A stretch of DNA of 64,000 nucleotides. It comes from Candidatus Ornithoclostridium faecavium (GTDB taxonomy: Bacteria > Bacillota > Clostridia > Christensenellales > UBA3700). Below the pieces are notes generated by a model that saw nothing but the letters and a program-made list of their open reading frames with translations, was not told the origin of the DNA and searched no databases. This document shows positions 14,947 to 31,974 of the stretch, piece by piece; position 1 is the stretch's first letter, and the number at the start of each line of letters is the position of its first letter. A program made the position numbers and the translations under genes. The DNA lies in contig DVNX01000113.1 in assembly GCA_018714045.1 (NCBI GenBank), positions 11,016 through 75,015 on the forward strand. The letters run 5' to 3'.

Positions 14947-15016
14947 GCGCCGTTGATGTGCACCCCAAAAGTTAGACACTTTTGGAGGTGCACATCACGT
15001 AAAAGGCGCTTTTTTT
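14947..15016 (+). terminator. intrinsic terminator after the ANTAR gene
   Basis: Long nested hairpin GCGCC..GATGTGCACC..CCAAAAGT/ACTTTTGG..GGTGCACATC..GGCGC followed by T7. Confidence 0.7.
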
Positions 15017-15226
15017 ATTTCCCTTATTAAATGCCATGTTCTCACGTCGTCAGACATCGACCGTATCCGGCAGAGAGCAGCTTATCCTGCGCGCAATTTC
15101 GTTAATTGTTCAGTCGGTCGGTCGATATGCCGCGCGATAATTTATATGCAGCCGTGTTTTTCTCATTCAAAACACTTTCTGTCAATATCCCGTTTTTAAG
15201 TATTTGAACAATATCCCGACTTTCGT

Positions 15227-15255
15227 TTGCGTAGCGGCGCGCGTAGTGATATCAT
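15227..15255 (+). promoter_or_regulatory. candidate promoter of azlCD
   Basis: TTGCGT, a 17-nt spacer, then TATCAT. It lies 34 nt upstream of the azlC ATG. Confidence 0.4.
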
Positions 15256-15288
15256 ATTGTTTGCCGCAAACAGCGGATAAGAGGTAGT

Positions 15289-16113
15289 ATGCGTTTTAAA
15301 TACGGATGCCGCGACGGCGTACCTATAATGCTGGGATATCTGACCGTTTCTTTCACCTTCGGCGTAAGCTGCGTTGCTAAAGGCTTCGCCTGGTGGATGC
15401 CCCTTTTATGTTCTTTTACCAATTTCACGGGTACGGGACAATTTGCGGGAATGGATCTGATAGCGGCAGGCGGCAGCGTGGTCGAACTCATCGCCACGAT
15501 GCTGGTCATAAACGCGCGTTACTCGCTGATGGGAATATCTCTTTCACAGAAACTGGAAGGTAAGACGACTCTGTTGCAAAGACTTGTCATCGCCTTCGGT
15601 CTTACGGACGAAAACTATGCGGTCGCGATAAGACAGCCGCGCGACGTCTCTTTCGAATACTTTCTGGGCGTATCTCTGACTTCTTTTTCGGGTTGGGTCG
15701 CGGGCACTCTTCTGGGGACGCTCGCGGGAAACGTACTTCCCGAAAGTCTGCTCAGCGCTTTCGGCATAGCGCTGTACGCAATGTTCATCGCGATAGTCGT
15801 CCCACCGTGCCGCACCTCGAAGGCGATTTTCACGGTAGTCCTCACCGCGATAGCGATGAGCTGCCTTTTCTATTACGTTCCCGTACTTAACGGTCTTTCG
15901 TCGGGCTGGTCGATAATAATATGCGGAATAGTCTCTGCTCTTATCGGAGCGATATTCTTTCCGATAAAACAGGACGGCGACAGCGAAAACAAACCAAAAG
16001 ACGGAGTGATATTCGGCGGTAAAAAAAGCAACGAATACCCCGAAGAAACGTATACTGGTCGCGAAAATGTCGCGGGCGACGCAAATAACGACGCCAAAGG
16101 AGGCGCGCTGTGA
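15289..16113 (+). CDS. azlC: AzlC family branched-chain amino acid permease component
   Basis: 274 aa and polytopic, with N-terminus GVPIMLGYLTVSFTFGV typical of AzlC. Overlaps azlD by 4 nt. Confidence 0.8.
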   Translation: MRFKYGCRDGVPIMLGYLTVSFTFGVSCVAKGFAWWMPLLCSFTNFTGTGQFAGMDLIAAGGSVVELIATMLVINARYSLMGISLSQKLEGKTTLLQRLVIAFGLTDENYAVAIRQPRDVSFEYFLGVSLTSFSGWVAGTLLGTLAGNVLPESLLSAFGIALYAMFIAIVVPPCRTSKAIFTVVLTAIAMSCLFYYVPVLNGLSSGWSIIICGIVSALIGAIFFPIKQDGDSENKPKDGVIFGGKKSNEYPEETYTGRENVAGDANNDAKGGAL

Positions 16114-16427
16114 GAGTCTTAGACGTAGTATGGAAAATAGCTCTTATGGCGGCGCTGACCTACCTTTGCCGCGCTGTCACGCTGGTACTTGTACGCAAGA
16201 AGATAACCAACGTGCGGATATTGTCGTTTTTCGAATACCTGCCTTACGGCGTGCTCAGCGCAATGGTGTTTCCCGTCGTGTTCTACTCTTCGGCAAGTCT
16301 TGTATCCGCGCTCGTCGGCACTCTCGTCGCGGTCGTGCTTTCTTTCTTTAAAAGAGGTCTTCTGACTGTCGCGCTGTCAGCTACCGCCGCGGTTTTCGTT
16401 ACGGAACTTATAATGACTCTCGTTTAA
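16110..16427 (+). CDS. azlD: AzlD family branched-chain amino acid transport protein
   Basis: 105-aa hydrophobic protein translationally coupled to azlC. Confidence 0.75.
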   Translation: MRVLDVVWKIALMAALTYLCRAVTLVLVRKKITNVRILSFFEYLPYGVLSAMVFPVVFYSSASLVSALVGTLVAVVLSFFKRGLLTVALSATAAVFVTELIMTLV

Positions 16428-16485
16428 CCTGTTTTGTCTGATTTTTCAAATTAAGCGTATCTTCAAACTGAAGATAAATGATCGT

Positions 16486-16521
16486 AAAAAAACGGACGGC
16501 TGAGCCGTCCGCGTTTCTTTT
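16486..16521. terminator. bidirectional intrinsic terminator between azlD and the YegP-like gene
   Basis: CGGACGGC-tga-GCCGTCCG hairpin flanked by an A7 run on one side and a T-rich run on the other. It sits between convergent genes. Confidence 0.7.
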
Positions 16522-16530
16522 CGCTATTGA

Positions 16531-16938
16531 TTATTTGTATTCCTCTTCGGATACCATATCCGCGCCGGGCGCCCATTTAGCAACGCTGGCGATGCCCGCC
16601 TTGCAAGTAGCTTTGCTGGCGTAGCCCTCTTCAGATATGCAAAGAAGGTTGCCGTTGTTGGCTTTCAGACGGTAGCGGAATTTTCCCTGTTTGTCGAGAT
16701 ATATCTCGTACTTGGGGTTGGTAAGAGTCTCATATCCACGTGCGAGAGTCTGATCCTCTATCTTGTCTATAGTGCAGAATTTGCGGACGGAATCAATACC
16801 CGCCTTACAGCTTTTGAGATCTGAATACGCGCCTTCGCAAACCGCGATCGTCTCCTTGTTGGGAGCTTTTAGTCTGAAATTGAAATTACCCTTAGCCGTC
16901 TTGTAATAGACGAAAGTACCTTTAAGTTCGTATGCCAT
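16531..16938 (-). CDS. YegP-like protein (tandem DUF1508 repeats)
   Basis: 135 aa with two internal repeats (FRLKAPNKETIAV.EGYS.LKSCKAGIDSV and YRLKANNGNLLCISEGYASKATCKAGIASV). Confidence 0.7.
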   Translation of the reverse strand: MAYELKGTFVYYKTAKGNFNFRLKAPNKETIAVCEGAYSDLKSCKAGIDSVRKFCTIDKIEDQTLARGYETLTNPKYEIYLDKQGKFRYRLKANNGNLLCISEEGYASKATCKAGIASVAKWAPGADMVSEEEYK

Positions 16939-17026
16939 AAAATTCTTCTCCTTTATATTGCCGACGCTGTCGGGCTGATCCGGATTTAACGAAAATGCAG
17001 CCTCAAACCTTCCCTCAACCGTATTT

Positions 17027-17055
17027 ATTATAACTTTTATTCACTGCCGTGTCAA
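17027..17055 (-). promoter_or_regulatory. sigma-A type promoter of the YegP-like gene
   Basis: Minus strand has TTGACA, a 17-nt spacer, then TATAAT. Confidence 0.6.
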
Positions 17056-17097
17056 CCCCGCATTCCCTTCCTCAGTCGCAGTATGAGCCGATTTTTC

Positions 17098-17373
17098 TTA
17101 AATTTTACACACCTTGTCCGATCGGTAAACTTGCGGCACGCGATACGACGTGCCGCAAACGGGAGAAGTGTATGCTTCTACGTTCTTCTTTTGCGCCGTA
17201 TGCGGATAATATGCCGGCTTGCAGTTCATATACGTCTTGTCCCTCATTATCTCTCGCGATATGGTGCTCACGTTTCATTCCGTTAGCTCTGCTATCTTTC
17301 TTAAACTATTGCCTTCATTGTAGTATTTTCGTAGACAACAGCGCTCTTCTATGCTAAGTTTTGTATAGTTCAT
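17098..17373 (-). pseudogene. IS30-family transposase remnant (N-terminal HTH only, with an in-frame TGA)
   Basis: Minus strand translates as MNYTKLSIEERCCLRKYYNEGNSLRKIAELTE*NVSTISREIMRDKTYMNCKPAYYPHTAQKK..., an IS30-type N-terminal HTH. In-frame TGA at 17277..17275. The frame ends after 91 codons, with no DDE domain and no inverted repeats seen. Confidence 0.6.
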
Positions 17374-17514
17374 ACATTAACTACTGTTTTTTATTTAGAG
17401 CTAACTACATTATACAGCTGTTTTTGTATGAACTCTTTTCTTTGTCAAAGTATTGCACTTGAAAGTATACCAGCCTCTATTGAACCACGCGACTATCACG
17501 TGGTTTTCAAATTA

Positions 17515-17543
17515 CAAAAAATACGTACGGATCGTACCGTCCG
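17515..17543 (-). terminator. candidate terminator of the glycoside hydrolase gene
   Basis: Minus strand has an ACGGTACG-atc-CGTACGT hairpin followed by ATTTTTTG. It lies 27 nt after the stop codon. Confidence 0.4.
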
Positions 17544-17569
17544 CATCTTATCGCGCATAGAATTTCGTC

Positions 17570-19468
17570 TCATCTTACATTATCGGAAAATCTTATCTCC
17601 TGTCCTTCAAGCCATCCTTCCACACGACCTACGACGGGCAGATCGAAAGAGTATTTCCTTTTCTTATTACCTGAGTTTCTCAGCATAAGAACGTACTTGT
17701 CGCCCTTTATCGCGATATAACCGTATACCTCTCCCCGTTCAGGTCTTCCTCCGAAAAATCGGGAATTTCCCAGAACGTCCGCATGCTTTTTCGCAAAGCC
17801 GAGTTCTCTTGCGGCTATCTTCCACTTTTCGTCCGTCATCATCTCAGGAGAAAAATACAGTTCAGCCAATCCGCTGCCGCGCATGAGGCAACATCTGAGA
17901 TAAACTGAAAATTCCTCATCCGTGTAGGTTATCGGCTTGTTTTTTGCCGCGTCTTTCCTGCTTGCGTAATTTCTCGCCGCATAAGTCGGCTCATGATTGT
18001 AAACGTGCGCGGCGGGGAACTGATATTGCCTTTTTATAAACAGATCGCGATATCTGCCGTCGCGGTAATTGAGACACCTCTGCATATTGCTTCCCTTGCC
18101 GACGAATTCCATATCTGAAGCGTTGTTCATCCATACGAAATCTGCGTACTTTAAAAACCAAGGCGAAAGATGAGCGTAAGAGGTCACGTTGAGGCATACG
18201 TTTTTGTTCGCCTCTCTTATCTTTTCAAAGCCCTTTATCCAGCGTCTCCACAGTCCTGCATAAAAAGCCCTGCAGTCCCTGTCCGCAGGCGCGTGCCTGT
18301 GCGCGGCGCTTTTACACGGTTTATATGCAAAGCCGTCTATTTTAAAATAATCCACGTCGTATCTCTTGCAGAAATCAGCCATCTTTCCGCACAGGTCCTC
18401 TATATATCTCGCATCCGCGGTGCATATATCGCGTGAATCTTCGTTGACGCCGTAGCCTATGCTTTCGAGCAGTTTTGCGTATACGTAGGTCTGACTCGTA
18501 TAACCGCCGCGGGGGCCGAACCATACGCCGAAAGTGCTGCCCAGCTCTTTGACCAGTTCTTTTTCTCTTTCGAATCCTCCGTCGAATTTCTTGTTGAATT
18601 CCCAGAAAAGCGGCTTATCGTATTCCGTCCAGCCGTCGTCTACCACGTAGCAATCCAACGCGCCGAGTCCTGCTCTCTTCGCGCCTTCGGCAATAAGCCT
18701 GAACGACTTCTCTATCCGTTCGTGCGTGATATCCAGTTTATTGTCGTACCAGCTGTTGTACTGTATCCTGAACAAAGGTCTGCGAACGTTTTCGTAAAGA
18801 TAAGAAAAGAAGCTTTCGCGTACGCTCTCGTACCCTTCGGACAAAGCCGCTCCCGCAACAAAGCTTTCGGTTTCGAAAACTCCGCCCTGTTCTGAAACGG
18901 GGTATTTTTCGTTCATGCAGAAAAAGTCCGCGACCTTACGCTTTATAAAGTTGTCTCCCACGGGAGATTCGAGTCCGAAAAACATATCTCCTATATATAC
19001 GGGTTGTCCCAGCCTCGCTATTTCAGCAGGTATAAACGTATCGCCCGCAAGCGGCGCAGACCACGAAAAAGCGGCTTTCGGCACGGCGACGCGCGCGATA
19101 TACACGCCGTCGGGCGCGGTTTTTCCGTCCGTCTTTACCGTTATCTTTTCGCACAGCGTTCCGTCTTTTCTGCTCTCGTCGTAACTTTCGGTCACGGTAA
19201 CGCCTTCATATACGTATCTTAAGATTTTTCCCTCGCGGTCTGCCTCGACAAGACAGTTTTCCGCGCTCACAAACGTCTTTTTCCTGAACCTGCGGGTGGT
19301 ATCGCGAAAGACTATCCTGAAGCCTTCAGTAACGCGATATTCTCTGCCCGTAAGCTTATTCAGATAACAAGCCCCTGCGTATCTGTTGTCCTTTAAAAAT
19401 ATTTTTTTAGCGACTTTCGCGTTTTCTACGACGACGGTCTTTAAACCGTCTTTTTCCGATATTTCCAA
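17570..19468 (-). CDS. glycoside hydrolase, alpha-galactosidase-like (GH36/clan GH-D-like)
   Basis: 632 aa with CYVVDDGW and YFKIDG motifs typical of the melibiase fold. TTG start with GGAG upstream. Family assignment is tentative. Confidence 0.55.
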   Translation of the reverse strand: MEISEKDGLKTVVVENAKVAKKIFLKDNRYAGACYLNKLTGREYRVTEGFRIVFRDTTRRFRKKTFVSAENCLVEADREGKILRYVYEGVTVTESYDESRKDGTLCEKITVKTDGKTAPDGVYIARVAVPKAAFSWSAPLAGDTFIPAEIARLGQPVYIGDMFFGLESPVGDNFIKRKVADFFCMNEKYPVSEQGGVFETESFVAGAALSEGYESVRESFFSYLYENVRRPLFRIQYNSWYDNKLDITHERIEKSFRLIAEGAKRAGLGALDCYVVDDGWTEYDKPLFWEFNKKFDGGFEREKELVKELGSTFGVWFGPRGGYTSQTYVYAKLLESIGYGVNEDSRDICTADARYIEDLCGKMADFCKRYDVDYFKIDGFAYKPCKSAAHRHAPADRDCRAFYAGLWRRWIKGFEKIREANKNVCLNVTSYAHLSPWFLKYADFVWMNNASDMEFVGKGSNMQRCLNYRDGRYRDLFIKRQYQFPAAHVYNHEPTYAARNYASRKDAAKNKPITYTDEEFSVYLRCCLMRGSGLAELYFSPEMMTDEKWKIAARELGFAKKHADVLGNSRFFGGRPERGEVYGYIAIKGDKYVLMLRNSGNKKRKYSFDLPVVGRVEGWLEGQEIRFSDNVR

Positions 19469-19646
19469 AACCTTGCTCCGTTTTTTCTTTATTTTAATAC
19501 CAAACGCGCAAAAAAGCCATAGGGTTTTTATAACAGTTTTTATAAATTATAAATCGGATTTAAGTCGCAACGCGTATTTACGCGCGAAATTATATTAGAG
19601 ACCGCAACAACGCGACATATGCGGTCCGCATCGTTTTCATCCGATC

Positions 19647-21068
19647 TCAATCTCCGAATTTGCCGAAAAACTTCGCCGCGACCTCTTTGCCTCCCGTTTC
19701 CGTTATCCTGCCGCCGCTTACGACTGCCGCCCTGTCGCAAAGCGCGTCTGCGCACCTTACGTCGTGAGTCACGGTTATGACCGTGTTGCCCGTTTCTTCG
19801 TGGATCTTATTTACGAGTTCGGTAAGCCTTTTAAGATTTTCGTAATCCTGTCCTACCGTAGGCTCGTCGAGAATAAGCACGTCGGGAGCCGAAGCGCATA
19901 CCGCCGCTACCGTCACCAGTCTTTTCTGACCCTCGGACAGCGATTGCGGGTGCCTTTTAAGCAGTTTTTCCAATCCGAACAGTTTCGCAGTCTTTGCCGC
20001 GAGATCCTTATTCTTCGCGCCGAAAGCTATCTCCTTCTCCACGGTCGGCATAAACAGCTGATAGTTGGGGTTCTGATAAACGACGCCTACGCGTTTAAAC
20101 CATTTTCTGTTTCCTCTTTTTCTGTCGAATTTCGGATCGAGGAATTGCCTGATCTCGCCCTGAGAAGGTCTGCTCAGCCCTGCGATAAGCCTCGTTAAAG
20201 TCGTCTTGCCGCTTCCGTTTTCACCCAGGATCAACAGCCTTTCGCCCTTATAAACTTCAAGGTCAACGCCCGTAAGTATTTCCCTGCCGCCCGCCGAAAA
20301 TCCGACCTTTTCAATGCTGAAAAGTTTTTCCGCAGTCGGTTTCGACTTGCAGCTGTCCTCTATCCTTTCGGCACGCTCACGCATATAAGCGGCTTTGTCG
20401 TCTGTTTTTGAGAGCCTGCCGTTTTCCATATGCCATATCGTGTCTGCATACGGCGCGACTTTATCGACGCGGTGTTCGGTGATAAGCACGGCGTATCCCG
20501 CAGCCGCCAGTCTTTTCAGCGCGCCCAGAAGCAGTTCCGTCCCCTCGCCGTCAAGGTTCGCGAGAGGTTCGTCCAGCACAATTATCTTCTGATCGGTCGC
20601 GAGCGTGCAGGCGGTCATAAGTCTTTGCTTCTGCCCTCCTGAAAGAGTGCGCGTATCCCACGACGGAGACAGGCTCATCATTCCGCACGCCCTCGCAATG
20701 TTTTCAGCGATCTTTTCGCGAGGCATACCGAAGTTTTCGCAACCGAAAGCTATTTCGTCTTCTACCGTATTCTGAATTATCTGCGCGTCCGCGTTCTGCA
20801 ATACAACGCCTACCTTGCGGCATATTTCAGCCATCGTCATACCGCCGATATCTTCGCCCGAAACGTACGCTTTCCCTGAGATATCGCCTGAAACGACGTG
20901 CGGGATTATACCGCAGATCACAGATAAAAGCGTACTTTTACCGCTGCCCGAACAGCCTGAAAGCAAAGCGACCTCGCCGTAATCGAGCTTAAAATCCACT
21001 CTGTCGAGAGCGCGTTCAGCCTGACCATCGTAACGGAAACTCAGTTTTTTTGTCATCACCGCGTTCAT
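19647..21068 (-). CDS. ECF-transporter ATPase, fused duplicated EcfA-EcfA'
   Basis: 473 aa with two Walker A sites (GCSGSGKST, GENGSGKTT), two LSGGQ-like signatures (LSGGQKQR, LSEGQKRL) and two Walker B sites. Confidence 0.85.
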   Translation of the reverse strand: MNAVMTKKLSFRYDGQAERALDRVDFKLDYGEVALLSGCSGSGKSTLLSVICGIIPHVVSGDISGKAYVSGEDIGGMTMAEICRKVGVVLQNADAQIIQNTVEDEIAFGCENFGMPREKIAENIARACGMMSLSPSWDTRTLSGGQKQRLMTACTLATDQKIIVLDEPLANLDGEGTELLLGALKRLAAAGYAVLITEHRVDKVAPYADTIWHMENGRLSKTDDKAAYMRERAERIEDSCKSKPTAEKLFSIEKVGFSAGGREILTGVDLEVYKGERLLILGENGSGKTTLTRLIAGLSRPSQGEIRQFLDPKFDRKRGNRKWFKRVGVVYQNPNYQLFMPTVEKEIAFGAKNKDLAAKTAKLFGLEKLLKRHPQSLSEGQKRLVTVAAVCASAPDVLILDEPTVGQDYENLKRLTELVNKIHEETGNTVITVTHDVRCADALCDRAAVVSGGRITETGGKEVAAKFFGKFGD

Positions 21069-21739
21069 AATACCACCGCCAATACCGATCCCGCAACGAG
21101 GATAACGGCAAACGCCGCGTCCTTGACAGCGAATTTCACGTCGCGGTACACGGTATAATTTTTGTCATCGGCACTGAAGCCGCGCGTTTCTACGCTCAGA
21201 GCGAGAGTGTCCGAAATGTTTACCAGTCTTACCACGAGCGGCACCAAAAACGCCCTGTGAAATATCTTAGGGTTTAAAGCATTGCCGGCGCCGCGCGTTT
21301 TCATCGCTTCCCTTATCCTCTGAGTCTCCTTTCTCAAAAGCGGAAAAAAGCCGAGAGCTATCATCATTCCCAGCGTCAACATTCTGGGCGCGCGTAACCC
21401 CGACAGATTTCTGACAAGAAGCATAGGTTCGAGCGCCAGTCCGGGGATCAGCGCGACGGATACCGCGAGTATCCTGTTCGCCGCCGCAAAAGTCGAAACC
21501 GCGTCTTTTGAAAGCGCGTAGGTGATCCCGCAGAATATGGCGCTCATGATAAGCGCGATCGGCAGCACGGCAAGACAACTTTTCCAGTATCCGAACGCAA
21601 GGAAAAGCAGCCACACGCCCGCCGCAAAGAAAGTCGAAGCCGCTGTCTTAGCCGTTACCAGCCCGACCACGAGTATCACGACGGCGGAAATCACGCTTAA
21701 GACAGGATATACGGGATTTTTGACTTTGAGCGTTCCCAT
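21065..21739 (-). CDS. ECF transporter transmembrane (T) component, EcfT/CbiQ family
   Basis: Starts MGTLKVKNPVYPVLSV...; polytopic, with an ...AMKTRG... motif. The ATG at 21739 overlaps the upstream stop by 1 nt. The longer track start is rejected. Confidence 0.75.
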   Translation of the reverse strand: MGTLKVKNPVYPVLSVISAVVILVVGLVTAKTAASTFFAAGVWLLFLAFGYWKSCLAVLPIALIMSAIFCGITYALSKDAVSTFAAANRILAVSVALIPGLALEPMLLVRNLSGLRAPRMLTLGMMIALGFFPLLRKETQRIREAMKTRGAGNALNPKIFHRAFLVPLVVRLVNISDTLALSVETRGFSADDKNYTVYRDVKFAVKDAAFAVILVAGSVLAVVL

Positions 21740-22485
21740 TACTTTTTCAATACCCCCGCTTTCTTTAATTCTTTCGATATCTTGAGACCGACAAGAGTAC
21801 CGACGACAGCAACGGCGCATACCGCGACCGCCATACCGACAGCCGACCACGGCGCGTTTTCGGCTACCGCCGTCATACCGACGTCGTTTATTATCTTGTT
21901 GTAAACGTAGTTGAAAGGAAGAGAGAGCGGATTGTACAGCGCGACAGCGAAAAATACCGCTTTATCCGACTTGTAACCCTTGAATATAAGGACAACGAGG
22001 ATCTCGAGTATAAGCCCGACTATAACGTTGTTTATAAACATTGCGGGAGACATGAACAGCTGTATCACTCCCGTGAACACTGCGATAAGGAACATACTTC
22101 CCACCTTTCTCACCTTTGAAAGCGCTATAGCGGGGAATACCGCAAGCTGAAGCCCCGTTACAAGCTGAGCTATGCCGAACACCGTCGTAAGAAGAGGTAC
22201 GACCAGCATCATGACCGAACATGTAAGAAGAGTTATCGCCGACATTACCGCGAGAAAGACTATATCCTTTATCCTGAATCTTTGGAATATCTTGGCTTCG
22301 TCGTCGGTTTCCTCTTTGCCGTGCTTATCGACGAAAAAGCTCTCTTCTGCTTCTTCGCAGAACGCGTCGTCGTCCTTTATCCCGACAGCTTCTTTTTCGG
22401 TATTTTTACCGCATTTTTTCGTATCCGTGTCAGTAATACCGATATTTTCATCCGACTTTACGTTGTTTTCTTTAACTTCTTTCAC
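21739..22485 (-). CDS. putative ECF transporter S component (MptD-like) with an acidic N-terminal extension
   Basis: 248 aa. The C-terminal ~175 aa form a multi-helix membrane core directly upstream of EcfT and EcfAA'. GTG start with AAGGAGGAG SD. Confidence 0.6.
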   Translation of the reverse strand: MKEVKENNVKSDENIGITDTDTKKCGKNTEKEAVGIKDDDAFCEEAEESFFVDKHGKEETDDEAKIFQRFRIKDIVFLAVMSAITLLTCSVMMLVVPLLTTVFGIAQLVTGLQLAVFPAIALSKVRKVGSMFLIAVFTGVIQLFMSPAMFINNVIVGLILEILVVLIFKGYKSDKAVFFAVALYNPLSLPFNYVYNKIINDVGMTAVAENAPWSAVGMAVAVCAVAVVGTLVGLKISKELKKAGVLKK

Positions 22486-24171
22486 TTATTTCTCCTCCTT
22501 TATCCTTCCGTTTTCTATCCTGTAAACTCTGTCAGCTATTGCCATCGTAGACTCTCTGTGAGAGACCAGGATTATCGCCTTGTCCTTTTTCTGCTCCGCA
22601 AGCGATCTTAAGATCATTCCTTCGTTGATACTGTCCACGTTGCTTGTAGGCTCGTCGAGAAGTATAAGTCCGCTTCCGCGCAGAAAAGCCCTCGCGAGTC
22701 CTATTCTCTGCTTTTCGCCCGCGCTCAGATTGTCGCCCAGCGCTCCCGCGCGGGTCTCATACCCTTCAGGAAGAGAGACAATAAAGTCGTGTACAGATGC
22801 CCGTCTGCACGCCCTTTCGAGTTCTTCTTCAGTTGCGTCCTCTTTCGCGATCCTCAGATTTTCCTCGATAGTATCGTCGAAAAGATAGGTGGACTGACTA
22901 ACCATCGTAACGTTATCGGTAAGGCTGCTTGAGTTTATCTCTTCGATATCCTTTCCGCAATACGATATACTGCCGCCGTCTTTGCTCCAGAAGCGAAGCA
23001 GCAATTTGAGAAGAGTGGATTTCCCGCAACCGCTTTTGCCTACGATGCCGACTATCTCGCCGCGCTTTGCGTTAAGACAGATGTCTTTCAGCACTTCTTT
23101 ATCCTTTTCGTAAGAAAAGCAGAGATCTTTAACTTCGAGATCTTCGAACAAGAAATCTTCGCCGTTTTCTATGTTTTCGACGACGGGCTTTTCGTTCAGC
23201 AGTTTTAAGACCCTGTCTCCGCTCGCGAAAGTCTGCGTAAGGTTCCCGGGAAGCGCGGATATCGCGATGACGGGTCCGAAGCTTCCGAATATCGCGACTA
23301 CGCCTATGATCGCCTTACCTATCGATATTTCTCCCGCGGCAACCAAAGCGACCGCCGCGCCAGCCGCGATGAGAGTCATAAACGATACGGTAAATTCCGT
23401 CGCCGCCGTAGCGTTTGCTATCTTGTATTTAAGTTCGCGGGTATATCCCGAAAGAGTGTCCGATCTTTCCGAAACGCCGCGCTTTCTCGTCTCTCCCGCG
23501 TTGTTGAGCACTATATCCTTTATGCCCTTTATGCTGTCGAGAAAATAGGCGTTGAACGCTGAAAAGCACGCGCGGTATTTTACGCCCGCCTCTTTCATCG
23601 CAGAAGAGGATATCAGCGGCGCGACTATTCCGACCGCTATATACCCGATAGCCGCTACGAGAGCCAGCCACCAGCTCGATACGAGACCCACGAAAATCAT
23701 CACCGCCGCAGATACGGTCAGCGCGATGCATATCGGCGATACCGTATGCGCGTAAAACACTTCGAGCGTCTCTATGTCAGAAGTCAGCATCGCTATGATG
23801 CTTCCCTTCTGCTTGCTTTCGAGTTTAGCGGGGCAAAGCCTTCTGAGCGCGGAAAAGATCTTGTCTCTTAGCACCGCGAGAAGCTTGAACGCGATATAGT
23901 GGTTGCAATACTGTTCGACAAATCTGAGTCCGCCTCTGAGCACGCCCAGTCCTACCGCCATGCCGATTATTACCCCGTACGACAAAGCTATCTGTTCGCC
24001 TAAAGCCTTGGCGACGCCGACAGCGCCGAAAACAGTAACGCCCATAGAGCATACAAATCCCAGACTTCCGTTTATCACCGCGAATACCATTACGTACGCG
24101 AGAGAGCCTAAAAGCACGATCAGACTCGCCATTATCCTGCCGCCGCTCATTCTGCCGCCTTGCTTTTTCAT
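22486..24171 (-). CDS. ABC transporter permease/ATPase fusion (exporter-type, CydC-like)
   Basis: 561 aa: N-terminal 6-TM domain and C-terminal NBD (GKSGCGKST, LSAGEKQR, LLDEPTS). Confidence 0.8.
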   Translation of the reverse strand: MKKQGGRMSGGRIMASLIVLLGSLAYVMVFAVINGSLGFVCSMGVTVFGAVGVAKALGEQIALSYGVIIGMAVGLGVLRGGLRFVEQYCNHYIAFKLLAVLRDKIFSALRRLCPAKLESKQKGSIIAMLTSDIETLEVFYAHTVSPICIALTVSAAVMIFVGLVSSWWLALVAAIGYIAVGIVAPLISSSAMKEAGVKYRACFSAFNAYFLDSIKGIKDIVLNNAGETRKRGVSERSDTLSGYTRELKYKIANATAATEFTVSFMTLIAAGAAVALVAAGEISIGKAIIGVVAIFGSFGPVIAISALPGNLTQTFASGDRVLKLLNEKPVVENIENGEDFLFEDLEVKDLCFSYEKDKEVLKDICLNAKRGEIVGIVGKSGCGKSTLLKLLLRFWSKDGGSISYCGKDIEEINSSSLTDNVTMVSQSTYLFDDTIEENLRIAKEDATEEELERACRRASVHDFIVSLPEGYETRAGALGDNLSAGEKQRIGLARAFLRGSGLILLDEPTSNVDSINEGMILRSLAEQKKDKAIILVSHRESTMAIADRVYRIENGRIKEEK

Positions 24172-25931
24172 AACGCCGCACCTCCTTTTGCGTACAAGAG
24201 ATAACCCTGTTCGAGCTCTTTCTGCGTATTATAAAGCGCCGCATACTCTCCGCCCTTCGCGCATAGCTCTGAGTGCGTTCCGCTTTCCTCGACCGCGCCG
24301 TCGTTGAGAAAATATATTTTGTCAGCCTTAACGACGTTTTCCAATCTGTGGGATATGACTACCACCGCCGCTTTTTTTGACAGCGCGTCGATATTTTCCA
24401 TTATCACGGCTTCGCTTTCTACGTCGATATTAGAAGTCGCCTCGTCAAAAACATATATATCCTTATCTGCAACCAGATTGACAGCGAGCGCGAGCCTCTG
24501 CTTCTGCCCGCCCGAAATATTGCCCGCGTCTTCCGTTATCACCTTGTCGGGTCCGCCGTTTTCTCTGACGAAATCGGCGAGATCTACCTTTTTGAGCGCG
24601 GAGTATATCTCGTCGTCGCTTACGTCGTTTTTCGCCATGCGGAAATTGTCTCTTACGCTTTCGTTGAATATGTAAGTATTGTAACTTACCACCGCTAAGC
24701 GCGAATAATAACTCTCTCTGGAAAATTCGTCGAAAGTCTTTCCTCCTACGAGGACCTGTCCGTCAGAAGGCCTCAGCGCCCCCGTTATAAGACCTACCGC
24801 AGTCGATTTACCGCTGCCGCTCTTTCCTACTATCGCGGTTATCCCCTTGCTGAAAGTCATGTTTACGTTTTTGAGCACGTCGCGACTGCCGTCGTAAGAA
24901 AAGGTCACGTTTCTGAGTTCCACGTCTCCGTCTCCGACCTCGCCCTTTCCCCAGACGGGCTGTTTTGCGTCAAGAAGAGCCTTTATCTTTTTACCTGCGC
25001 TTGCACCGTTCATAGCTACGTGAAACGCGCTGCCGAGAGCTCTCAAAGGCAGGAAAAATTCTACCGCGACGAGAATGAGGAACAGCGCTTCGAAAGGCGT
25101 TAAGTACCCATTTACAGCCCCCGTCACCGCAAGCGCTATACCCGCGCCCGCTCCGCCGAACGCGACCAGATCCATGATAGTGGTGCTGGCGAGTTGCATG
25201 ACCAGCACTTTCATCGTGATCTTGCGGAATTCTTCAGCCTTTTCGTTCATCTTTTCGTGATAGCGAGCGTCCGCTTTATATATCTTGAGTTCTTTGAGCC
25301 CCTGCACGCCGTCCAGAAATCCGTCTCCCATCGCCGTATACTTTCCCCAGTATTTAGCGAATATCCTCTTTGCGTACTTGCTGACCGCGATTATAGAAAG
25401 CGGTATCAGCGGCACGCACGCGAGAAGTACGAGCGAGGTGCGCCAGTCTATGAACACGCATACCGAAAAAAGAACAAAAGGAGCTATCACCGAAAAGAAG
25501 AACTGCGGAAGGTAGTTGGAATAATAAAGGTCGAGTTGCTCTATGCCTTCCATGCTCACCTGCGTAAGACCCGCCATACTCATCTCTTCCGTCGTGCGCA
25601 CGCCGAGGGAGACTATCTTGTCGTAAGTCTTTGTCCTGAGCTCCTTTCTGACTTTCGCGCCGAGGCTTGCTTTTATCCTGTTCACGGCTATCCCGGTCGG
25701 GATCCTCAGGATAACGCCTGCGAGCGCGAGCGCCGCGGGAATAACGTATCCTCCGGCCTCTGCACCTTCCGCCGCAAGAGCTATCATATTGCATATACAT
25801 GCCGTCACCGCCATGTTGAGCAGCATCGCGACGACGGACAAGACGACCGTCGCCGCAATATATCTGCCGCTTCCCTTTGCCAATAAAAACAGATCTTTAT
25901 CCAGCATATCTATTTCCTTCTTCCCCGTCAT
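24168..25931 (-). CDS. ABC transporter permease/ATPase fusion (exporter-type, CydD-like)
   Basis: 587 aa with a TMD and an NBD (GKSGSGKST, ISGGQKQR, VFDEATS). ATGA overlaps at both ends. Confidence 0.8.
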   Translation of the reverse strand: MTGKKEIDMLDKDLFLLAKGSGRYIAATVVLSVVAMLLNMAVTACICNMIALAAEGAEAGGYVIPAALALAGVILRIPTGIAVNRIKASLGAKVRKELRTKTYDKIVSLGVRTTEEMSMAGLTQVSMEGIEQLDLYYSNYLPQFFFSVIAPFVLFSVCVFIDWRTSLVLLACVPLIPLSIIAVSKYAKRIFAKYWGKYTAMGDGFLDGVQGLKELKIYKADARYHEKMNEKAEEFRKITMKVLVMQLASTTIMDLVAFGGAGAGIALAVTGAVNGYLTPFEALFLILVAVEFFLPLRALGSAFHVAMNGASAGKKIKALLDAKQPVWGKGEVGDGDVELRNVTFSYDGSRDVLKNVNMTFSKGITAIVGKSGSGKSTAVGLITGALRPSDGQVLVGGKTFDEFSRESYYSRLAVVSYNTYIFNESVRDNFRMAKNDVSDDEIYSALKKVDLADFVRENGGPDKVITEDAGNISGGQKQRLALAVNLVADKDIYVFDEATSNIDVESEAVIMENIDALSKKAAVVVISHRLENVVKADKIYFLNDGAVEESGTHSELCAKGGEYAALYNTQKELEQGYLLYAKGGAAL

Positions 25932-26434
25932 CCGACGAGCTTTGCTTTGCTAAGATCGCAGGTCACCGAAAACTCTACGACTTTGTTCATGATTTTCACT
26001 TCACATTCAAGCGATATCTCAGAGTCCAGCTCCTCGCGCGTCATTTCGAACGTAAAACTCTGATATCCGTCCGCTGCGCCCTGCTTTCCCTGGGTTTTAC
26101 CCGATTTTCTCACGACTTTGACGCTTCCCAGCATGCCGTCGTCGCAATAAAATGTCAAAGTATAGCCGCTTTGAGTCTTTTCGACCGTAACGTAATCGGC
26201 GCAATTTGCCGATATCATCGTCTTTCCGATAGCGGACGTGTCTCCTATTTCGTAAGGCACTCTGAACACCCCCGTATCTTCCGAATCGATATCGTAAATT
26301 TCTCCCAACGTTCTTCCGTATACGTCTGTCCCTTCGTAAACGACTTCTCCGTTGTTATCGTTACACGCGGTAAACGCAAAAATCGCGATCGCGATCGTAA
26401 GCGTCGCAATCATACACTTAACTATTCTCTTCAT
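25928..26434 (-). CDS. lipoprotein of unknown function
   Basis: 168 aa. Signal peptide with lipobox (IAIFAFTAC). No family recognised by eye. Confidence 0.65.
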   Translation of the reverse strand: MKRIVKCMIATLTIAIAIFAFTACNDNNGEVVYEGTDVYGRTLGEIYDIDSEDTGVFRVPYEIGDTSAIGKTMISANCADYVTVEKTQSGYTLTFYCDDGMLGSVKVVRKSGKTQGKQGAADGYQSFTFEMTREELDSEISLECEVKIMNKVVEFSVTCDLSKAKLVG

Positions 26435-26826
26435 TTAGCGTCCTCTCCTTTTTCAGTCTTTCCCGTCGCATTCGTCTTTCCCTTTGTTTCGTTTTTTCCA
26501 TTTGCCATCTTTTTCTCTCTGCTCTTGCGTTGCAAAGTCTCCCTTAAATGAGCAAACGCAACTAACGGATCGTAAAAGATCATTCTGGGTCCGCTATATC
26601 GCATGACTTCTTTTATCTTTTCTCTCATTTCAGGCTTGTAACAATGTATCCTGCAATTAGAGCAAAAGGGCTTGTCGTCTCCGAAAGGACATTTCGATCG
26701 CCTGAACTGTACGTACTCCCACAGCTCTTGGCAATCCTTGCAAAGCTTTCCCTTTTCAGTTTTGTGTCTGCCGCGACAATACAGCTCTATCATGAACCTG
26801 ACGGTGGCAAGATCGTCTTTACGCAT
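26431..26826 (-). CDS. YgbA-like Cys-rich protein (the family annotated as nitrous oxide-stimulated promoter protein)
   Basis: 131 aa with CRGRH..CKDC..CPFG..CSNCRIHCYKP, characteristic of YgbA-like proteins. AAGAGGAGG SD. Confidence 0.65.
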   Translation of the reverse strand: MRKDDLATVRFMIELYCRGRHKTEKGKLCKDCQELWEYVQFRRSKCPFGDDKPFCSNCRIHCYKPEMREKIKEVMRYSGPRMIFYDPLVAFAHLRETLQRKSREKKMANGKNETKGKTNATGKTEKGEDAK

Positions 26827-26841
26827 AGTCCTCCTCTTTAG

Positions 26842-26857
26842 GTTAGCAATTGCTAAC
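26842..26857. promoter_or_regulatory. operator-like perfect 16-bp palindrome GTTAGCAATTGCTAAC (copy 1)
   Basis: Perfect dyad, 16 nt upstream of the ygbA-like ATG, just before its SD. Confidence 0.55.
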
Positions 26858-26959
26858 TTGCCTGGTTTGAATAACGGCGTTCAGAAGGCGTATCTTCGCC
26901 ATACCTTACGCCGCTCTTTGAAAAGACATCTCTTTCCTTTGCTCAATTATCATATCATA

Positions 26960-26988
26960 AGTATACTGCGCCGTATTTGTGTTAGCAA
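26960..26988 (-). promoter_or_regulatory. candidate promoter of the seven-gene operon
   Basis: Minus strand has TTGCTA (inside palindrome copy 2), a 17-nt spacer, then TATACT. Confidence 0.45.
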
Positions 26989-26996
26989 TAGCTAAC
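26981..26996. promoter_or_regulatory. operator-like palindrome GTTAGCAATAGCTAAC (copy 2)
   Basis: The 6-bp arms are perfect inverted repeats and only the central N4 differs from copy 1. Overlaps the candidate -35. Confidence 0.55.
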
Positions 26997-27101
26997 ATAT
27001 CGCTACTCTGTAAATTATATGATACGTTGCGACAAAATACCCGTATTTATCGCAAAATCCGTAATCCGATATCATTTGAATAAATGTTACCGCATTTTTA
27101 A

Positions 27102-27117
27102 GTTACCTATTGCTTAC
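27102..27117. promoter_or_regulatory. degenerate third copy GTTACCTATTGCTTAC
   Basis: One mismatch per half-site relative to GTTAGC/GCTAAC. It lies 22 nt upstream of the -35 of the plus-strand promoter. Confidence 0.35.
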
Positions 27118-27139
27118 TTTATTCTCTAAAAATCCGCTA

Positions 27140-27168
27140 TTGACCAAAGCGCGCCTTTATTTTATAAT
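27140..27168 (+). promoter_or_regulatory. sigma-A type promoter of the flavin oxidoreductase gene
   Basis: TTGACC, a 17-nt spacer, then TATAAT. AAGGAGG SD follows. Confidence 0.6.
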
Positions 27169-27196
27169 AAAAACGGATATGTAAGGAGGAATTCAT

Positions 27197-29248
27197 ATGC
27201 AGGACAAATTCAAACCGTTGTTCACGCCGTGGAAAATACGCGACGTTGAGATCAAGAACAGGATAGTCCTCTGTCCTATGGGCGGAACTTCCCTGTTCGG
27301 CTGGATGGAACCCAATCACTTCGACAAGGTCGCCGCAGATTTCTTTATGGAAAGAGCAAAACACGACGTCGGACTTATAATCCCCGGCATCGCTCCGCTC
27401 AGAGACACCATAGGCGGAAGATGGCTGTACAAAAACAAGAAGATGTTCGGTAAGCTCAAAGATTATATGGTCGAATTCCATAAGACCGGCGCTAAAATGT
27501 TCATTCAGCTTACCGCGGGTTTCGGCAGATCTTTCGCTGTCACAGACGCTCTGGTACCTATGCTGAAAAACAAAGCTCTCGGTCTGCTGGCAAAACCATT
27601 CGTGGACATACAGTATATCTGCGCTTCTCCCAGCGAGCTTCCTTCGCGTTGGGCTGAAGACGTTATGTGCCGCGCGCTGACCAAAAAGGAAATTCAGCAG
27701 ATGGTCTACGCTTTTGCCGAGACGGCGCGTCTGTGCAAAGAAGCGGGAGTCGACGGCGTTGAAGTCCACGCCGTTCACGAAGGATATCTTCTCGATCAGT
27801 TTACCCTTCCATATACCAATAAACGCACGGACGAATACGGCGGCAGCTTTGAAAACCGTTACCGCTTTGCCGTCGACGTCGTAAAGGCGATAAAGGCGGC
27901 TTGCGGAGAAAACTACCCCGTTTCCCTGCGCTATTCGGTACTCAGCAAGACTAAGGATTTCTGCGTGGGAGCTATGCCCGGCGAAGTCTACGACGAAATA
28001 GGCAGAGATATGGAAGAAAGCGAAAAAGCGGCTAAATATCTGCAGGACGCGGGTTACGATATGCTGAACGCGGACAACGGCACTTACGACGCGTGGTACT
28101 GGGCACACCCGCCCGCATATATGCCGAAGAACTGCAACCTCGACGACGTCGCGCATATCAGAAAATTCGTCGATATCCCCGTAGTATGCGCGGGAAGAAT
28201 GGAACCCGATACAGCCGCGCAGGCAATCAAAGACGGCAAGATCGACGCTATGGGCGTCGCGCGTCAATTCCTCGCGGACGGCGCGTGGGTCACAAAGCTC
28301 AAGGAAGACAAACTCGACGATATACGCCCGTGCATATGCTGTCACAACGCGTGTTTCGCGATGGCGCATTATAAAGGAGTCGCCAACGACGAAACTTTCG
28401 ACGACGCGTCCCACATGGCGCGGTGCGCGCTCAACCCGCAGACGATGCAGGGACATAAGTACGACATAATTCCTGCCAAAAAGCCGAAAACGGTCGCGGT
28501 CATCGGCGGCGGCATAGGCGGCATGGAGACCGCAAGGATAGCGACTCTCCGCGGACATAAAGTCACGATATACGAAAAGACGGATAAGCTGGGCGGCGTA
28601 TTCATTGCCGCGGCGGCGCCCGATTTCAAGGAAAAGGACAAAGACCTGATAAAGTGGTATATAAAGCAGATAAACGACCTTAATATACCCGTTAAATTCA
28701 ACTGCGAAATAAAGGATATTTCAAGTCTTAAAGAAGACGAGATAGTCGTCGCTACCGGCGCGGTCGCGCGGAAGATGAATATCAAAGGCATAGAACGCGC
28801 GAAAGAAGCGGTAGAATATCTTTCGGGAGCGCAGACAGGCGAAAACGTAGTCGTAATCGGCGGCGGTCTTACAGGCTGCGAAATAGCTTACGATCTCTTC
28901 CTGAAAGGAAAGAAACCCGTCATCGTTGAGATGAAAAACGACCTCATCGCGGTGCGCGGCGTATGCCTTGCCAACTCCTCTTATCTGAGAGATTTCTTCG
29001 CATATAACAAAGTGCCCGTCTATCTCGAAAGCAAAGTTTCCGAAATAGGAGAAAACAGCGTCACCGTAACCGATAAGAACGGCAAAAAGACGGTGCTCAA
29101 AGCGGACGACGTGATCGTTTCAGTCGGATACGCTCCCGCGCCGTTAGCCGCTAAAGACAAACGCGTTTCTCTGGTCGGCGACGCTAACGGAGTCGGCAAC
29201 CTGCGCACAGTGATATGGCGCGCGTGGGACGTGGCAAAGAAGATATGA
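27197..29248 (+). CDS. NADH:flavin oxidoreductase, 2-enoate reductase / 2,4-dienoyl-CoA reductase-like (OYE barrel plus Fe-S plus FAD/NAD domain)
   Basis: 683 aa: OYE-like N-terminus (NRIVLCPMG), Cys cluster RPCICCHNACF and a GGGIGGME dinucleotide fold. Confidence 0.8.
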   Translation: MQDKFKPLFTPWKIRDVEIKNRIVLCPMGGTSLFGWMEPNHFDKVAADFFMERAKHDVGLIIPGIAPLRDTIGGRWLYKNKKMFGKLKDYMVEFHKTGAKMFIQLTAGFGRSFAVTDALVPMLKNKALGLLAKPFVDIQYICASPSELPSRWAEDVMCRALTKKEIQQMVYAFAETARLCKEAGVDGVEVHAVHEGYLLDQFTLPYTNKRTDEYGGSFENRYRFAVDVVKAIKAACGENYPVSLRYSVLSKTKDFCVGAMPGEVYDEIGRDMEESEKAAKYLQDAGYDMLNADNGTYDAWYWAHPPAYMPKNCNLDDVAHIRKFVDIPVVCAGRMEPDTAAQAIKDGKIDAMGVARQFLADGAWVTKLKEDKLDDIRPCICCHNACFAMAHYKGVANDETFDDASHMARCALNPQTMQGHKYDIIPAKKPKTVAVIGGGIGGMETARIATLRGHKVTIYEKTDKLGGVFIAAAAPDFKEKDKDLIKWYIKQINDLNIPVKFNCEIKDISSLKEDEIVVATGAVARKMNIKGIERAKEAVEYLSGAQTGENVVVIGGGLTGCEIAYDLFLKGKKPVIVEMKNDLIAVRGVCLANSSYLRDFFAYNKVPVYLESKVSEIGENSVTVTDKNGKKTVLKADDVIVSVGYAPAPLAAKDKRVSLVGDANGVGNLRTVIWRAWDVAKKI

Positions 29249-29319
29249 TAAACACGGGCATAAAAATTTTGCAAAATACGAAAGCCCTTTATACGCTGTA
29301 AAAAGGTATAAGTCAAACA

Positions 29320-29350
29320 AAAAAGCGCGGGAGCATATCCCGCGCTTTTT
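29320..29350 (+). terminator. intrinsic terminator
   Basis: GCGCGGGA-gcata-TCCCGCGC followed by TTTTT, preceded by an A-run (possibly bidirectional). Confidence 0.7.
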
Positions 29351-29500
29351 GCGCTTTGCCGAATTACTCTATATTCCCGCCTTACCGCCGTCGTCTGTTT
29401 ATATCTTTATCTGAACCGTCCTTACTTTCTTTATCGGCGAGCCGTCAAACCCGCTTCTTTTAGCGCGCTTTATAAATAAATAACGCCTGGCGGCAAAGCA

Positions 29501-29526
29501 TAAAAAAAGAAGCCTTTCGGCTTCTC
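29501..29526 (-). terminator. intrinsic terminator of acpP
   Basis: Minus strand has GAAGCC-gaaa-GGCTTC followed by TTTTTTT. It lies 13 nt after the acpP stop. Confidence 0.65.
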
Positions 29527-29538
29527 TTTATTCTTTTC

Positions 29539-29769
29539 TTATTTCTTGTTAGCTTCGATGTATTTGACGACGTCGCCTACCGTTACGAATTCACGCACCG
29601 CGTCTTCTTCAATTTCTACGCCGAATTCGTCCTCAGCCGCCATAACAAGCTCTACCATATCGAGCGAATCCGCCTGCAGGTCCTCTTTAAGCTTCGTGTC
29701 GACGGTTATTTCATCTTCGGATATGCTCATCTTGCCTGCTATGATTTGTTTTACCTTTTCGAGTACCAT
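29539..29769 (-). CDS. acpP: acyl carrier protein
   Basis: MVLEKVKQIIAGKMSISEDEI...LQADSLDMVELVMAAEDEFG, with the DSLD phosphopantetheine site. GGAGG SD precedes the ATG at 29769. Confidence 0.9.
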   Translation of the reverse strand: MVLEKVKQIIAGKMSISEDEITVDTKLKEDLQADSLDMVELVMAAEDEFGVEIEEDAVREFVTVGDVVKYIEANKK

Positions 29770-29837
29770 TGATTTTACCTCCGTATATTGCTTGAAATAA
29801 GACCGCACGTAATACCGCATCTTTTTCTTACTTATTC

Positions 29838-29866
29838 AGTATAACTCTTTTTGCGGATATTTGCAA
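29838..29866 (-). promoter_or_regulatory. candidate acpP promoter
   Basis: Minus strand has TTGCAA, a 17-nt spacer, then TATACT. Confidence 0.5.
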
Positions 29867-29884
29867 CAAAATTAATCTTTGCGT

Positions 29885-29902
29885 ATTCGTAGCGCTACGA
29901 AT
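29885..29902. promoter_or_regulatory. perfect 18-bp palindrome ATTCGTAGCGCTACGAAT
   Basis: Perfect dyad between the PPTase stop and the acpP promoter, with no adjoining U-tract. Confidence 0.35.
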
Positions 29903-29944
29903 ATGCGCAAAATGTAAGAATTTACGCATTCAAGCGCGGGCAAT

Positions 29945-30373
29945 TCACACGCAAACGACGAAAAGGTCTTTATCTCCTCCCGCGATCGCCAGCACATATC
30001 CTCTGAGAAAAGTATGAAAGCTTACTCCGTCAGTATAGTCTCCTCCCGCCCTTACCTCGGAAAGTTTTATCCCGTCGGCGCTAAGCTTGCATCTTGCCTC
30101 GTAAGCCGTCCAGTTAAAGATGTCCTTCATCGTTTCGGGAACCTTCCTGTCCGACTTTTCCGCGTCTATTCCTACGGGTTTATCCGAAAGCGCGAGCATT
30201 ACGACGCCGTCTGTATGAGTAACGGATATATAATAATTGTCGCAATACGGCGCGCCGCTTTCCTTCTTTTTAATTTCTTTGATAAGCGGTTTGCCGACTG
30301 CCGCGAGCGCCGCGTCCGCTCTTTTCGCAAGCTCTTCAGAACCGCCGCACGAATCGGAAAGAAATATCAGCAT
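29945..30373 (-). CDS. 4'-phosphopantetheinyl transferase superfamily protein
   Basis: 142 aa with the GIDAE Mg-binding motif and W..YEARCK (W-x-x-KE-x-x-x-K-like). Adjacent to acpP. Confidence 0.6.
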   Translation of the reverse strand: MLIFLSDSCGGSEELAKRADAALAAVGKPLIKEIKKKESGAPYCDNYYISVTHTDGVVMLALSDKPVGIDAEKSDRKVPETMKDIFNWTAYEARCKLSADGIKLSEVRAGGDYTDGVSFHTFLRGYVLAIAGGDKDLFVVCV

Positions 30374-31969: not shown

Positions 31970-31974
31970 TACCG

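Follow-up and report, generated by a model that had tools for sequence, protein, structure and literature searches.

In Streptococcus pyogenes, the sia operon consists of shr, shp, siaABC, siaD/E (a 'putative ABC transporter') and siaF/G/H, which encode the S, T and A components of an energy-coupling factor (ECF) transporter, and it is repressed by MtsR (PMC6593403). In Staphylococcus lugdunensis, LhaSTA has been established experimentally as an ECF heme importer, and LhaS binds heme directly (PMC7299338). The subject of this analysis is a seven-gene operon on the minus strand of a 64-kb stretch of DNA (hereafter, the window) from a metagenome-assembled genome of Candidatus Ornithoclostridium faecavium, where seven open reading frames, each with a single terminal stop, lie head to tail at positions 19647-26826. 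MtsR is a regulator of the DtxR family, and SiaFGH is reportedly an ECF heme importer as well (attributed to Chatterjee, 2020). Mycobacterium avium subsp. paratuberculosis carries the mptABC-mptDEF island, in which a set of exporter-type ATP-binding cassette (ABC) genes is followed by an MptD-family S gene and by T and A genes. In Escherichia coli and Salmonella, expression of ygbA is reported to respond to nitric oxide and NsrR.

The operon is best explained as serving heme acquisition under control by iron or heme, and as a compact relative of the shp-sia (hts) locus of streptococci, and the probability of this explanation was set at roughly 0.6; the mechanistic details are held with lower confidence. 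The operon belongs to the sia-type heme loci and is a new version of them. A preliminary description of this DNA had drawn on the streptococcal gene layout, and that layout matches the published gene table (PMC6593403). The seven genes, all on the minus strand, were the following:

g1, 26431..26826, minus strand: YgbA family protein, 131 aa; matches Pfam YgbA_NO and NCBIfam NF007714; NCBI HIU82104, 'nitrous oxide-stimulated promoter family protein'.
g2, 25928..26434, minus strand: lipoprotein, 168 aa; predicted Shp/NEAT fold; NCBI HIU82103, 'hypothetical protein'.
g3, 24168..25931, minus strand: CydD-like ABC half-transporter (transmembrane domain followed by nucleotide-binding domain), 587 aa; NCBI HIU82102, 'ABC transporter ATP-binding protein/permease'.
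g4, 22486..24171, minus strand: CydC-like ABC half-transporter of the exporter fold, 561 aa.
g5, 21739..22485, minus strand: ECF S component of the MptD/Trep_Strep family, 248 aa, GTG start.
g6, 21065..21739, minus strand: ECF T component, 224 aa, ATG at 21739; Pfam CbiQ.
g7, 19647..21068, minus strand: fused double ECF ATPase (A-A'), 473 aa, with two ABC_tran domains.

Overlaps of 4 nt with the sequence ATGA were found at the junctions g1/g2 (26431/26434), g2/g3 (25928/25931), g3/g4 (24168/24171) and g6/g7 (21065/21068). At g5/g6 (21739), TAATG gives an overlap of 1 nt, and at g4/g5 (22486/22485) TAA is followed by GTG with a gap of 0 nt. Good Shine-Dalgarno sequences precede g1, g2, g4 and g5; none was seen before g3, g6 and g7 when the junctions were re-read, so the translation of these three genes is probably coupled to that of the preceding gene. 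The operon and all its junctions were exactly as claimed in the preliminary description, and its family assignments all held against Pfam, NCBIfam and the NCBI annotation. Its further suggestion that the seven products are probably made in fixed stoichiometry does not follow, as coupling is no proof of it. Overlaps of 4 nt are frequent in bacterial operons, and tight packing by itself is not remarkable. The genes flanking the operon are housekeeping genes, unrelated to it.

The lipoprotein g2 carries the lipobox FTAC with an invariant Cys24. Its homologues formed only 15 clusters of about 166-180 aa, and the lipobox cysteine was conserved in all of them. No match to g2 was found in Pfam or NCBIfam, and a profile search of the PDB was also empty. 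The AlphaFold2 (AF2) model made from the 15-sequence alignment (predicted local distance difference test [pLDDT] 86.4) was a beta-sandwich with one short helix. When this model was compared with the PDB by Foldseek, the best match was S. pyogenes Shp (2q7a_A, E 1.6e-5), behind which came the NEAT domains of IsdX1/2, Hbp2, IsdC, IsdA, IsdH and IsdB; the top 50 matches were all Shp or NEAT chains, with a target-normalised TM-score of up to 0.75.

Across the same family alignment, Met73 and Met149 of g2 were invariant. An Shp homologue from a related locus (L029) matched PDB 2q7a with an E-value of 6.7e-23, and the two methionines shared by these proteins map to 'GQGM' and 'EPMG'. The methionines of these two motifs are the axial heme ligands of Shp, Met66 and Met153. 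The g2 family was aligned by hhalign with a profile of five Shp homologues (A5) at a probability of 71% (E 3.7e-5, 95 columns), and this alignment sets 'GKTM73' and 'KIM149NK' of g2 on both conserved Shp methionines. The comparisons with one Shp homologue (0.75%) and with a mixed alignment of two kinds of surface protein (A4) were not significant. From the model and the alignments, we conclude that g2 is a remote, lipid-anchored relative of Shp in which both axial ligands appear to be kept, and heme binding is predicted. A Shp- or NEAT-like lipoprotein had been suggested before, and the top fold match and the aligned axial positions support this. Lipoproteins so far called 'hypothetical' thereby gain a reading, as a family, as Shp-like heme binders.

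Related loci (given below by L numbers) were collected in two scans. The scan centred on the S component used one genome per species and phmmer with the seven window proteins, and it gave 80 loci, 50 of them with enough flank for gene content to be counted. The reverse scan, centred on YgbA, was made on metagenome contigs and yielded 19 loci flanked by 4 kb or more on either side. Several of the loci place the same genes beside recognisable heme-uptake components. The order in L029 is Shp, a Peripla_BP_2 lipoprotein, a permease, an ATPase and a DtxR-family regulator, then CydD-CydC-YgbA-S-T-AA. In L024 and L039, a regulator, a C-terminally anchored surface protein, a Peripla_BP_2 lipoprotein, a permease, an ATPase and a second surface protein precede the six genes; the Peripla_BP_2 assignment was checked with Pfam in L024 and made by sequence resemblance in L039. 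Shp and a binding protein stand beside CydD-CydC-YgbA, with no ECF genes, in L088, L090 and L161. A SiaABC-type importer is found in the related loci L024, L029, L039 and L088. The arrangement of these relatives matches the gene order of the S. pyogenes sia operon as published (PMC6593403).

Paralogous pairs of secreted proteins with no Pfam match were observed in L024 (740-1735 and 5013-6032) and L039 (1019-1945 and 5190-6122). They contain the motifs 'CYVxAMGGVEF' and 'NSNVMGVQF', one protein of each pair is C-terminally membrane-anchored, and the pairs flank the Peripla_BP_2 importer under the same operator as the operon (see below). No convincing alignment with Shp was obtained for them; they are possibly another family of bis-methionine heme-binding proteins.

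Upstream of g1, the palindromes and the promoter candidate were located as follows:

Operator candidate 1, 26842..26857, no strand assigned: perfect palindrome GTTAGCAATTGCTAAC, an exact match on both strands, abutting the g1 ribosome-binding site on its upstream side.
Operator candidate 2, 26981..26996, no strand assigned: GTTAGCTATTGCTAAC, overlapping the -35 hexamer of the sole promoter-like site upstream of g1.
Promoter candidate, 26960..26988, minus strand: sigma-70-like, TTGCTA, 17-nt spacer, TATACT; 9 of 12 hexamer positions, a consensus match only.
Weaker third palindrome, 27102..27117, no strand assigned: GTTACCTATTGCTTAC, 2 mismatches, near the promoter of the divergent flavin oxidoreductase gene.

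The motif TTAGC-N4-GCTAA, with at least 9 of 10 positions matched, was counted across the 80 loci. There were 72 matches in 26.8 kb of operon-upstream DNA and 44 in the other 1,204 kb, an enrichment of about 73-fold. The matches usually come as two sites per promoter, and further pairs precede the operons of Shp-like surface proteins and Peripla_BP_2 binding proteins in L024 and L039. Genes of two-domain DtxR-family proteins (Fe_dep_repress and Fe_dep_repr_C) adjoin the operon in L029 and L098, DtxR-like genes recognised by sequence similarity only adjoin it in L036 and L158, and smaller Fe_dep_repress-like regulators are adjacent in L077, L065, L017 and L073. The GTTAG/CTAAC half-sites resemble the DtxR/IdeR box, with a spacing here that is wider than the classical one. 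Judged by these motifs, the local control element looks DtxR-like. The earlier suggestion that the operon handles heme is supported by the fold and ligand positions of g2, the related loci and this operator.

The divergent gene at 27197-29248 (plus strand) encodes a 683-aa flavin oxidoreductase resembling 2,4-dienoyl-CoA reductase, with Old Yellow Enzyme and pyridine nucleotide-disulphide oxidoreductase domains. A plus-strand promoter-like site was seen at 27140-27168. This neighbour is kept in the closest relatives (L003, L005, L007-L009 and L011-L013), not in L001. As it shares the palindrome-bearing intergenic region, it may be co-regulated with the operon. In L077 (13275-17804), two fused proteins of the ABC_tran-FtsX type (690 and 755 aa) are preceded by a second pair of palindromes; they are a possible further member of the regulon and perhaps an efflux system. 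A regulator of about 275 aa was observed beside CydD-like or Shp genes in L088 (9462-10301), L023 (5370-6191), L032 (5438-6244) and L090 (3988-4827), and also in L125, L139 and L159. It has an N-terminal winged helix-turn-helix (wHTH) and a beta-rich C-terminal domain with a sub-threshold match to Pfam NEAT (22.4 bits vs 32.8), and may act in the cytoplasm as a transcription factor that senses heme. When 15000-32000 was scanned with Rfam (E up to 1), there were two chance-level matches, both elsewhere and none upstream of the operon; a riboswitch or other RNA element in that position, the cobalamin riboswitch included, was rejected.

The last three genes form an ECF transporter. g5 matched PF09605 with 30.7 bits (gathering score 28.7), most of the g5 homologues listed carry PF09605, and the NCBI naming is MptD family, a name under which the literature gave no functional information. 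In the homologue alignment (A1), M92, the motif M145-x-P147-x-M149-F150 and a basic C-terminus were invariant. g6 matched Pfam CbiQ with 49.7 bits, and the best NCBIfam models for g7 were ECF_ATPase_1 and ECF_ATPase_2. The three genes adjoin and overlap, so that the S component lies beside its own T component and ATPases, as in a dedicated (group I) ECF transporter, and the order S-T-AA was preserved in nearly all 80 loci. It had been asked whether the lipoprotein or the S component would fall into a family with an unrelated, well-defined substrate, and no such substrate was indicated by the family matches of either. The N-terminus of g5 (22290-22485) is an acidic, poorly conserved extension of about 65 residues; it is absent from most homologues (187 aa), and extensions of like length recur in Christensenellaceae-type relatives (A1).

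g3 and g4 each carry ABC_membrane and ABC_tran domains and lie side by side. The best NCBIfam model for g3 was TIGR02857 CydD (380.3 bits, under the cut-off of 435) and that for g4 was TIGR02868 CydC (302.6 bits, under the cut-off of 329); by these scores the pair is taken as CydDC-like and not as equivalogs. In single-sequence searches of the PDB with g3 and g4, ABCB1 and MsbA outscored E. coli CydD and CydC, which means that the label 'CydDC-like' comes from the family profiles alone. cydAB is not adjacent to g3 and g4, as the operon's neighbours are the flavin oxidoreductase gene and the gene of a 632-aa protein with no Pfam match. In the related loci examined, cydAB was not found beside the ABC pair either.

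g1 passed the cut-offs of both PF11756 YgbA_NO (137.8 bits, cut-off 25) and NF007714 (127.8 bits, cut-off 88). The product is cytoplasmic and Cys/His-rich and has a basic C-terminal tail. In 40 YgbA sequences, C17, H21, C29, C32, C46, C55, C58, H61, C62 and H93 were invariant, a set that would be enough for two four-ligand metal sites. The AF2 model of g1 was all-helical (pLDDT 78.6) and had no fold match in the PDB. The family comprised 2,068 members at E up to 0.001 among 1.84 billion library representatives. The best 150 homologues were mostly 105-190 aa long, and among them YgbA was fused to flavodoxin (two independent cases), DUF454/YbaN (two), shikimate kinase (one) and Kelch repeats (one), in the proteins P0324, P0285, P0269, P0284, P0320 and P0397. 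The fusion with flavodoxin suggests that YgbA is a redox-active protein. In the literature library that was searched, no paper tied YgbA to heme, CydDC or ECF transport. A separate DUF454 gene (Pfam) follows YgbA in L093 (9622-10002), and a similar small membrane-protein gene follows it in L103 (9318-9710).

YgbA was present in 43 of the 50 S-centred loci with enough flank, the CydD-like and CydC-like genes were likewise present in 43, and YgbA and the ABC pair occurred together in 41. The lipoprotein was found in 14/50, in Christensenellaceae-type genomes only, and as it is confined to this one lineage, the conserved core is one of six genes. Carriers of the operon belong to Christensenellaceae, Oscillospiraceae, Ruminococcus, Lachnospiraceae, Anaeroplasma/Acholeplasmatales, Sphaerochaeta and Treponema. 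A lack of co-conservation in other genomes, which would have spoken against the preliminary description, was not seen: six of the seven genes are kept together across several lineages, the lipoprotein being the exception. The position of YgbA varies: YgbA-[Lipo]-CydD-CydC-S-T-AA, CydD-CydC-YgbA-S-T-AA and YgbA-S-T-AA were all found, the last with no ABC pair in L035, L049 and L064. In L018 and L020, YgbA is divergent and upstream of CydD, and in Treponema it follows AA. Whatever its position, it lies almost always at most 20 nt from its neighbour.

In the YgbA-centred scan, a CydD-like gene was next door in 17/19 loci and an ECF S component was present in 6/19, which makes the ABC pair the primary partner of YgbA. 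Many of these loci are three-gene CydD-CydC-YgbA operons, some of them followed by a DUF454/YbaN membrane protein. Only some genomes add the ECF transporter, as a second module, to YgbA and the ABC pair.

Under heme acquisition, the parts could work together in the following way. The lipid-anchored g2 would capture heme between Met73 and Met149, on the outer side of the membrane, and pass it to the MptD/SiaF-type S component g5, and import would be driven by the T component g6 and the fused A-A' ATPase g7. The g3/g4 heterodimer and YgbA, as a metalloprotein, would make up a module of their own, in two parts, and support heme uptake, most likely through redox or thiol handling, or else through heme hand-off or as a second path for heme; this is the least certain step. 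The GTTAGC-N4-GCTAAC palindromes would be bound by a repressor that depends on a metal and probably belongs to the DtxR family. With one palindrome on the -35 hexamer and one against the ribosome-binding site, such a repressor would silence the operon when iron or heme is plentiful.

A broader proposal, which is offered tentatively and which we would not yet bet on, is that YgbA proteins are dedicated cytoplasmic partners of CydDC-type heterodimers and thereby of heme-uptake systems. YgbA would then be a Cys/His metalloprotein with redox activity and possibly an Fe-S cluster, and would reduce, accept or gate the heme or thiol that is transported; the Shp-type bis-methionine hemophore would feed the ECF transporter directly, in place of an importer that depends on a binding protein. 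If true, this would give a first functional context to an orphan known only as a member of the NsrR regulon, and would suggest why E. coli YgbA and CydDC both tie to nitrosative stress.

Other explanations were weighed in order of falling probability. It is unlikely that the CydDC-like pair is itself the importer of heme or of an iron chelate, with YgbA as its cytoplasmic acceptor or reductase and the ECF transporter as a parallel route or a carrier of another ligand. In favour of this are the tight association of YgbA with the ABC pair, seen in the unequal counts of CydD-like genes and S components around YgbA, the three ECF-free loci where CydD-CydC-YgbA stands beside Shp and a binding protein, and the title 'heme ABC transporter' that NCBI gives to the E. 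coli CydD and CydC models; exporter-fold ABC proteins that import are known as well (YbtPQ, IrtAB). Sequence, however, cannot reveal the direction of transport, E. coli CydDC is called an exporter in the titles of papers, and three YgbA-S-T-AA loci do without the ABC pair. Two unrelated functions that happen to be co-transcribed are quite unlikely: thiol or redox export by the CydDC-like pair and YgbA under oxidative or nitrosative stress, and import of a porphyrin or micronutrient by the ECF transporter and the lipoprotein. Stand-alone CydD-CydC-YgbA operons are common, as this explanation would have it, redox chemistry is indicated by the flavodoxin-YgbA fusions, and two papers report E. coli ygbA in the NsrR regulon (PMC2884951, PMC5320621). 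Yet the ABC pair and YgbA recur with the ECF genes and with Shp/SiaABC-type heme importers under the same operator, and YgbA accompanies S-T-AA even where the ABC pair is missing.

A substrate other than heme, such as an iron-free porphyrin, a corrinoid precursor or a metal chelate, is very unlikely. Peripla_BP_2 proteins also bind siderophores and B12, and regulators of the DtxR family can sense Mn. NEAT domains are present in the PDB with cobalt- and gallium-porphyrins (3qzp, 3qug). Against these points, the conservation of both Shp-type axial methionines argues for a metal-centred porphyrin, and neither a cobalamin riboswitch nor another Rfam element was found upstream. Least probable of all, with a very low probability, is that YgbA is the transcription factor of the operon, sensing a metal or an Fe-S cluster and binding the palindromes itself. 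It is small, basic, often the first gene and divergent in two loci, and it accompanies the operon across several lineages. The palindrome nevertheless lies upstream of 8/19 operons with no YgbA nearby and, at the threshold of at least 9/10 positions, is missing upstream of 24/59 operons that have YgbA; its presence is thus independent of YgbA, which speaks against YgbA as the repressor. YgbA is also often embedded between CydC and S with overlapping codons, its model has no match to a DNA-binding fold, and separate DtxR-family or wHTH regulators are encoded beside it in L017, L029, L036, L073, L098 and L158.

Several points weigh against heme acquisition as the function of the operon. We infer the heme substrate from a fold, a ligand alignment and the gene neighbourhood. 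The placement of g2 in Shp/NEAT fails at the sequence level with single-sequence and Pfam-level searches, and the hhalign probability, obtained with a profile of just five sequences, is modest. g5 is a weak member of its family, with 25 bits against TIGR02185, under the cut-off of 76.45. The exporter fold of g3 and g4 sits oddly in an uptake operon. ECF and Shp genes are missing from the surroundings of many CydD-CydC-YgbA operons, so a more general function of this module is possible. The half-site spacing departs from the classical box. No DtxR-like regulator was found in the window by phmmer (E up to 10) with the Fe_dep_repress-like protein of L077 and the wHTH protein of L039 as queries, the two-domain DtxR proteins of L029 and L098 not being used.

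Two further observations concern the surroundings of the operon in the window. The 632-aa protein is encoded at 17570-19468 (minus strand), 178 nt downstream of g7; in L003 and L005, not in L001, its place is taken by unannotated proteins similar to it in size (about 620 aa). The cluster at 9722-14929 (plus strand), with glutamate synthase-like subunits, glutamine synthetase and an ANTAR-domain regulator, is an ordinary one for nitrogen assimilation and has no relation to the operon.

Heme acquisition is well studied in Gram-positive pathogens and hardly so in strictly anaerobic gut commensals. What is new here is the Shp-like lipoprotein family, the combination of an Shp-type binder with an ECF transporter and no SiaABC, the conserved operator and, above all, the linkage of YgbA with the CydDC-like pair. 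The roles of the ABC pair in sia-type loci and of YgbA become testable questions. Experiments are feasible, since versions of the cluster are carried by organisms in culture, namely Hydrogeniiclostridium mannosilyticum ASD2818 (L025), Solibaculum intestinale CLA-JM-H44 (L035) and Lientehia hominis NSJ-141 (L080). With the conserved operator as a guide, an iron/heme regulon can be mapped in genomes of this kind.

Compared with the known systems, the operon shares with the S. pyogenes sia/hts locus an Shp-type binder, an exporter-type ABC pair and ECF S/T/A components in one operon, and its clostridial relatives have Shp and SiaABC-like parts beside the same genes. It differs in lacking a SiaABC-type importer and Shr, in adding a YgbA gene and in the fusion of its two ATPases. 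The Shp-like domain is anchored as a lipoprotein in g2, whereas the Shp homologues (A5) have a C-terminal transmembrane segment. To our knowledge, the streptococcal sia operon has no ygbA. LhaSTA is likewise a dedicated ECF transporter; it is iron-regulated and sits in a heme-acquisition locus (PMC7299338). Unlike the operon of the window, it has no dedicated surface binder, ABC pair or YgbA, and it is regulated by Fur. The mptABC-mptDEF island is alike in its layout and in family name, since NCBI names the g5 family after MptD; we know of no Shp-like protein or YgbA in that island. With E. coli CydDC and YgbA, the likeness is that CydD and CydC are the best families for g3 and g4 and that g1 passes the YgbA cut-offs. 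The differences are that g3 and g4 score below the equivalog cut-offs and cydAB is not adjacent. As far as we know, ygbA and cydDC are unlinked in E. coli, whereas their counterparts are neighbours in 17 of the 19 YgbA-centred loci described here.

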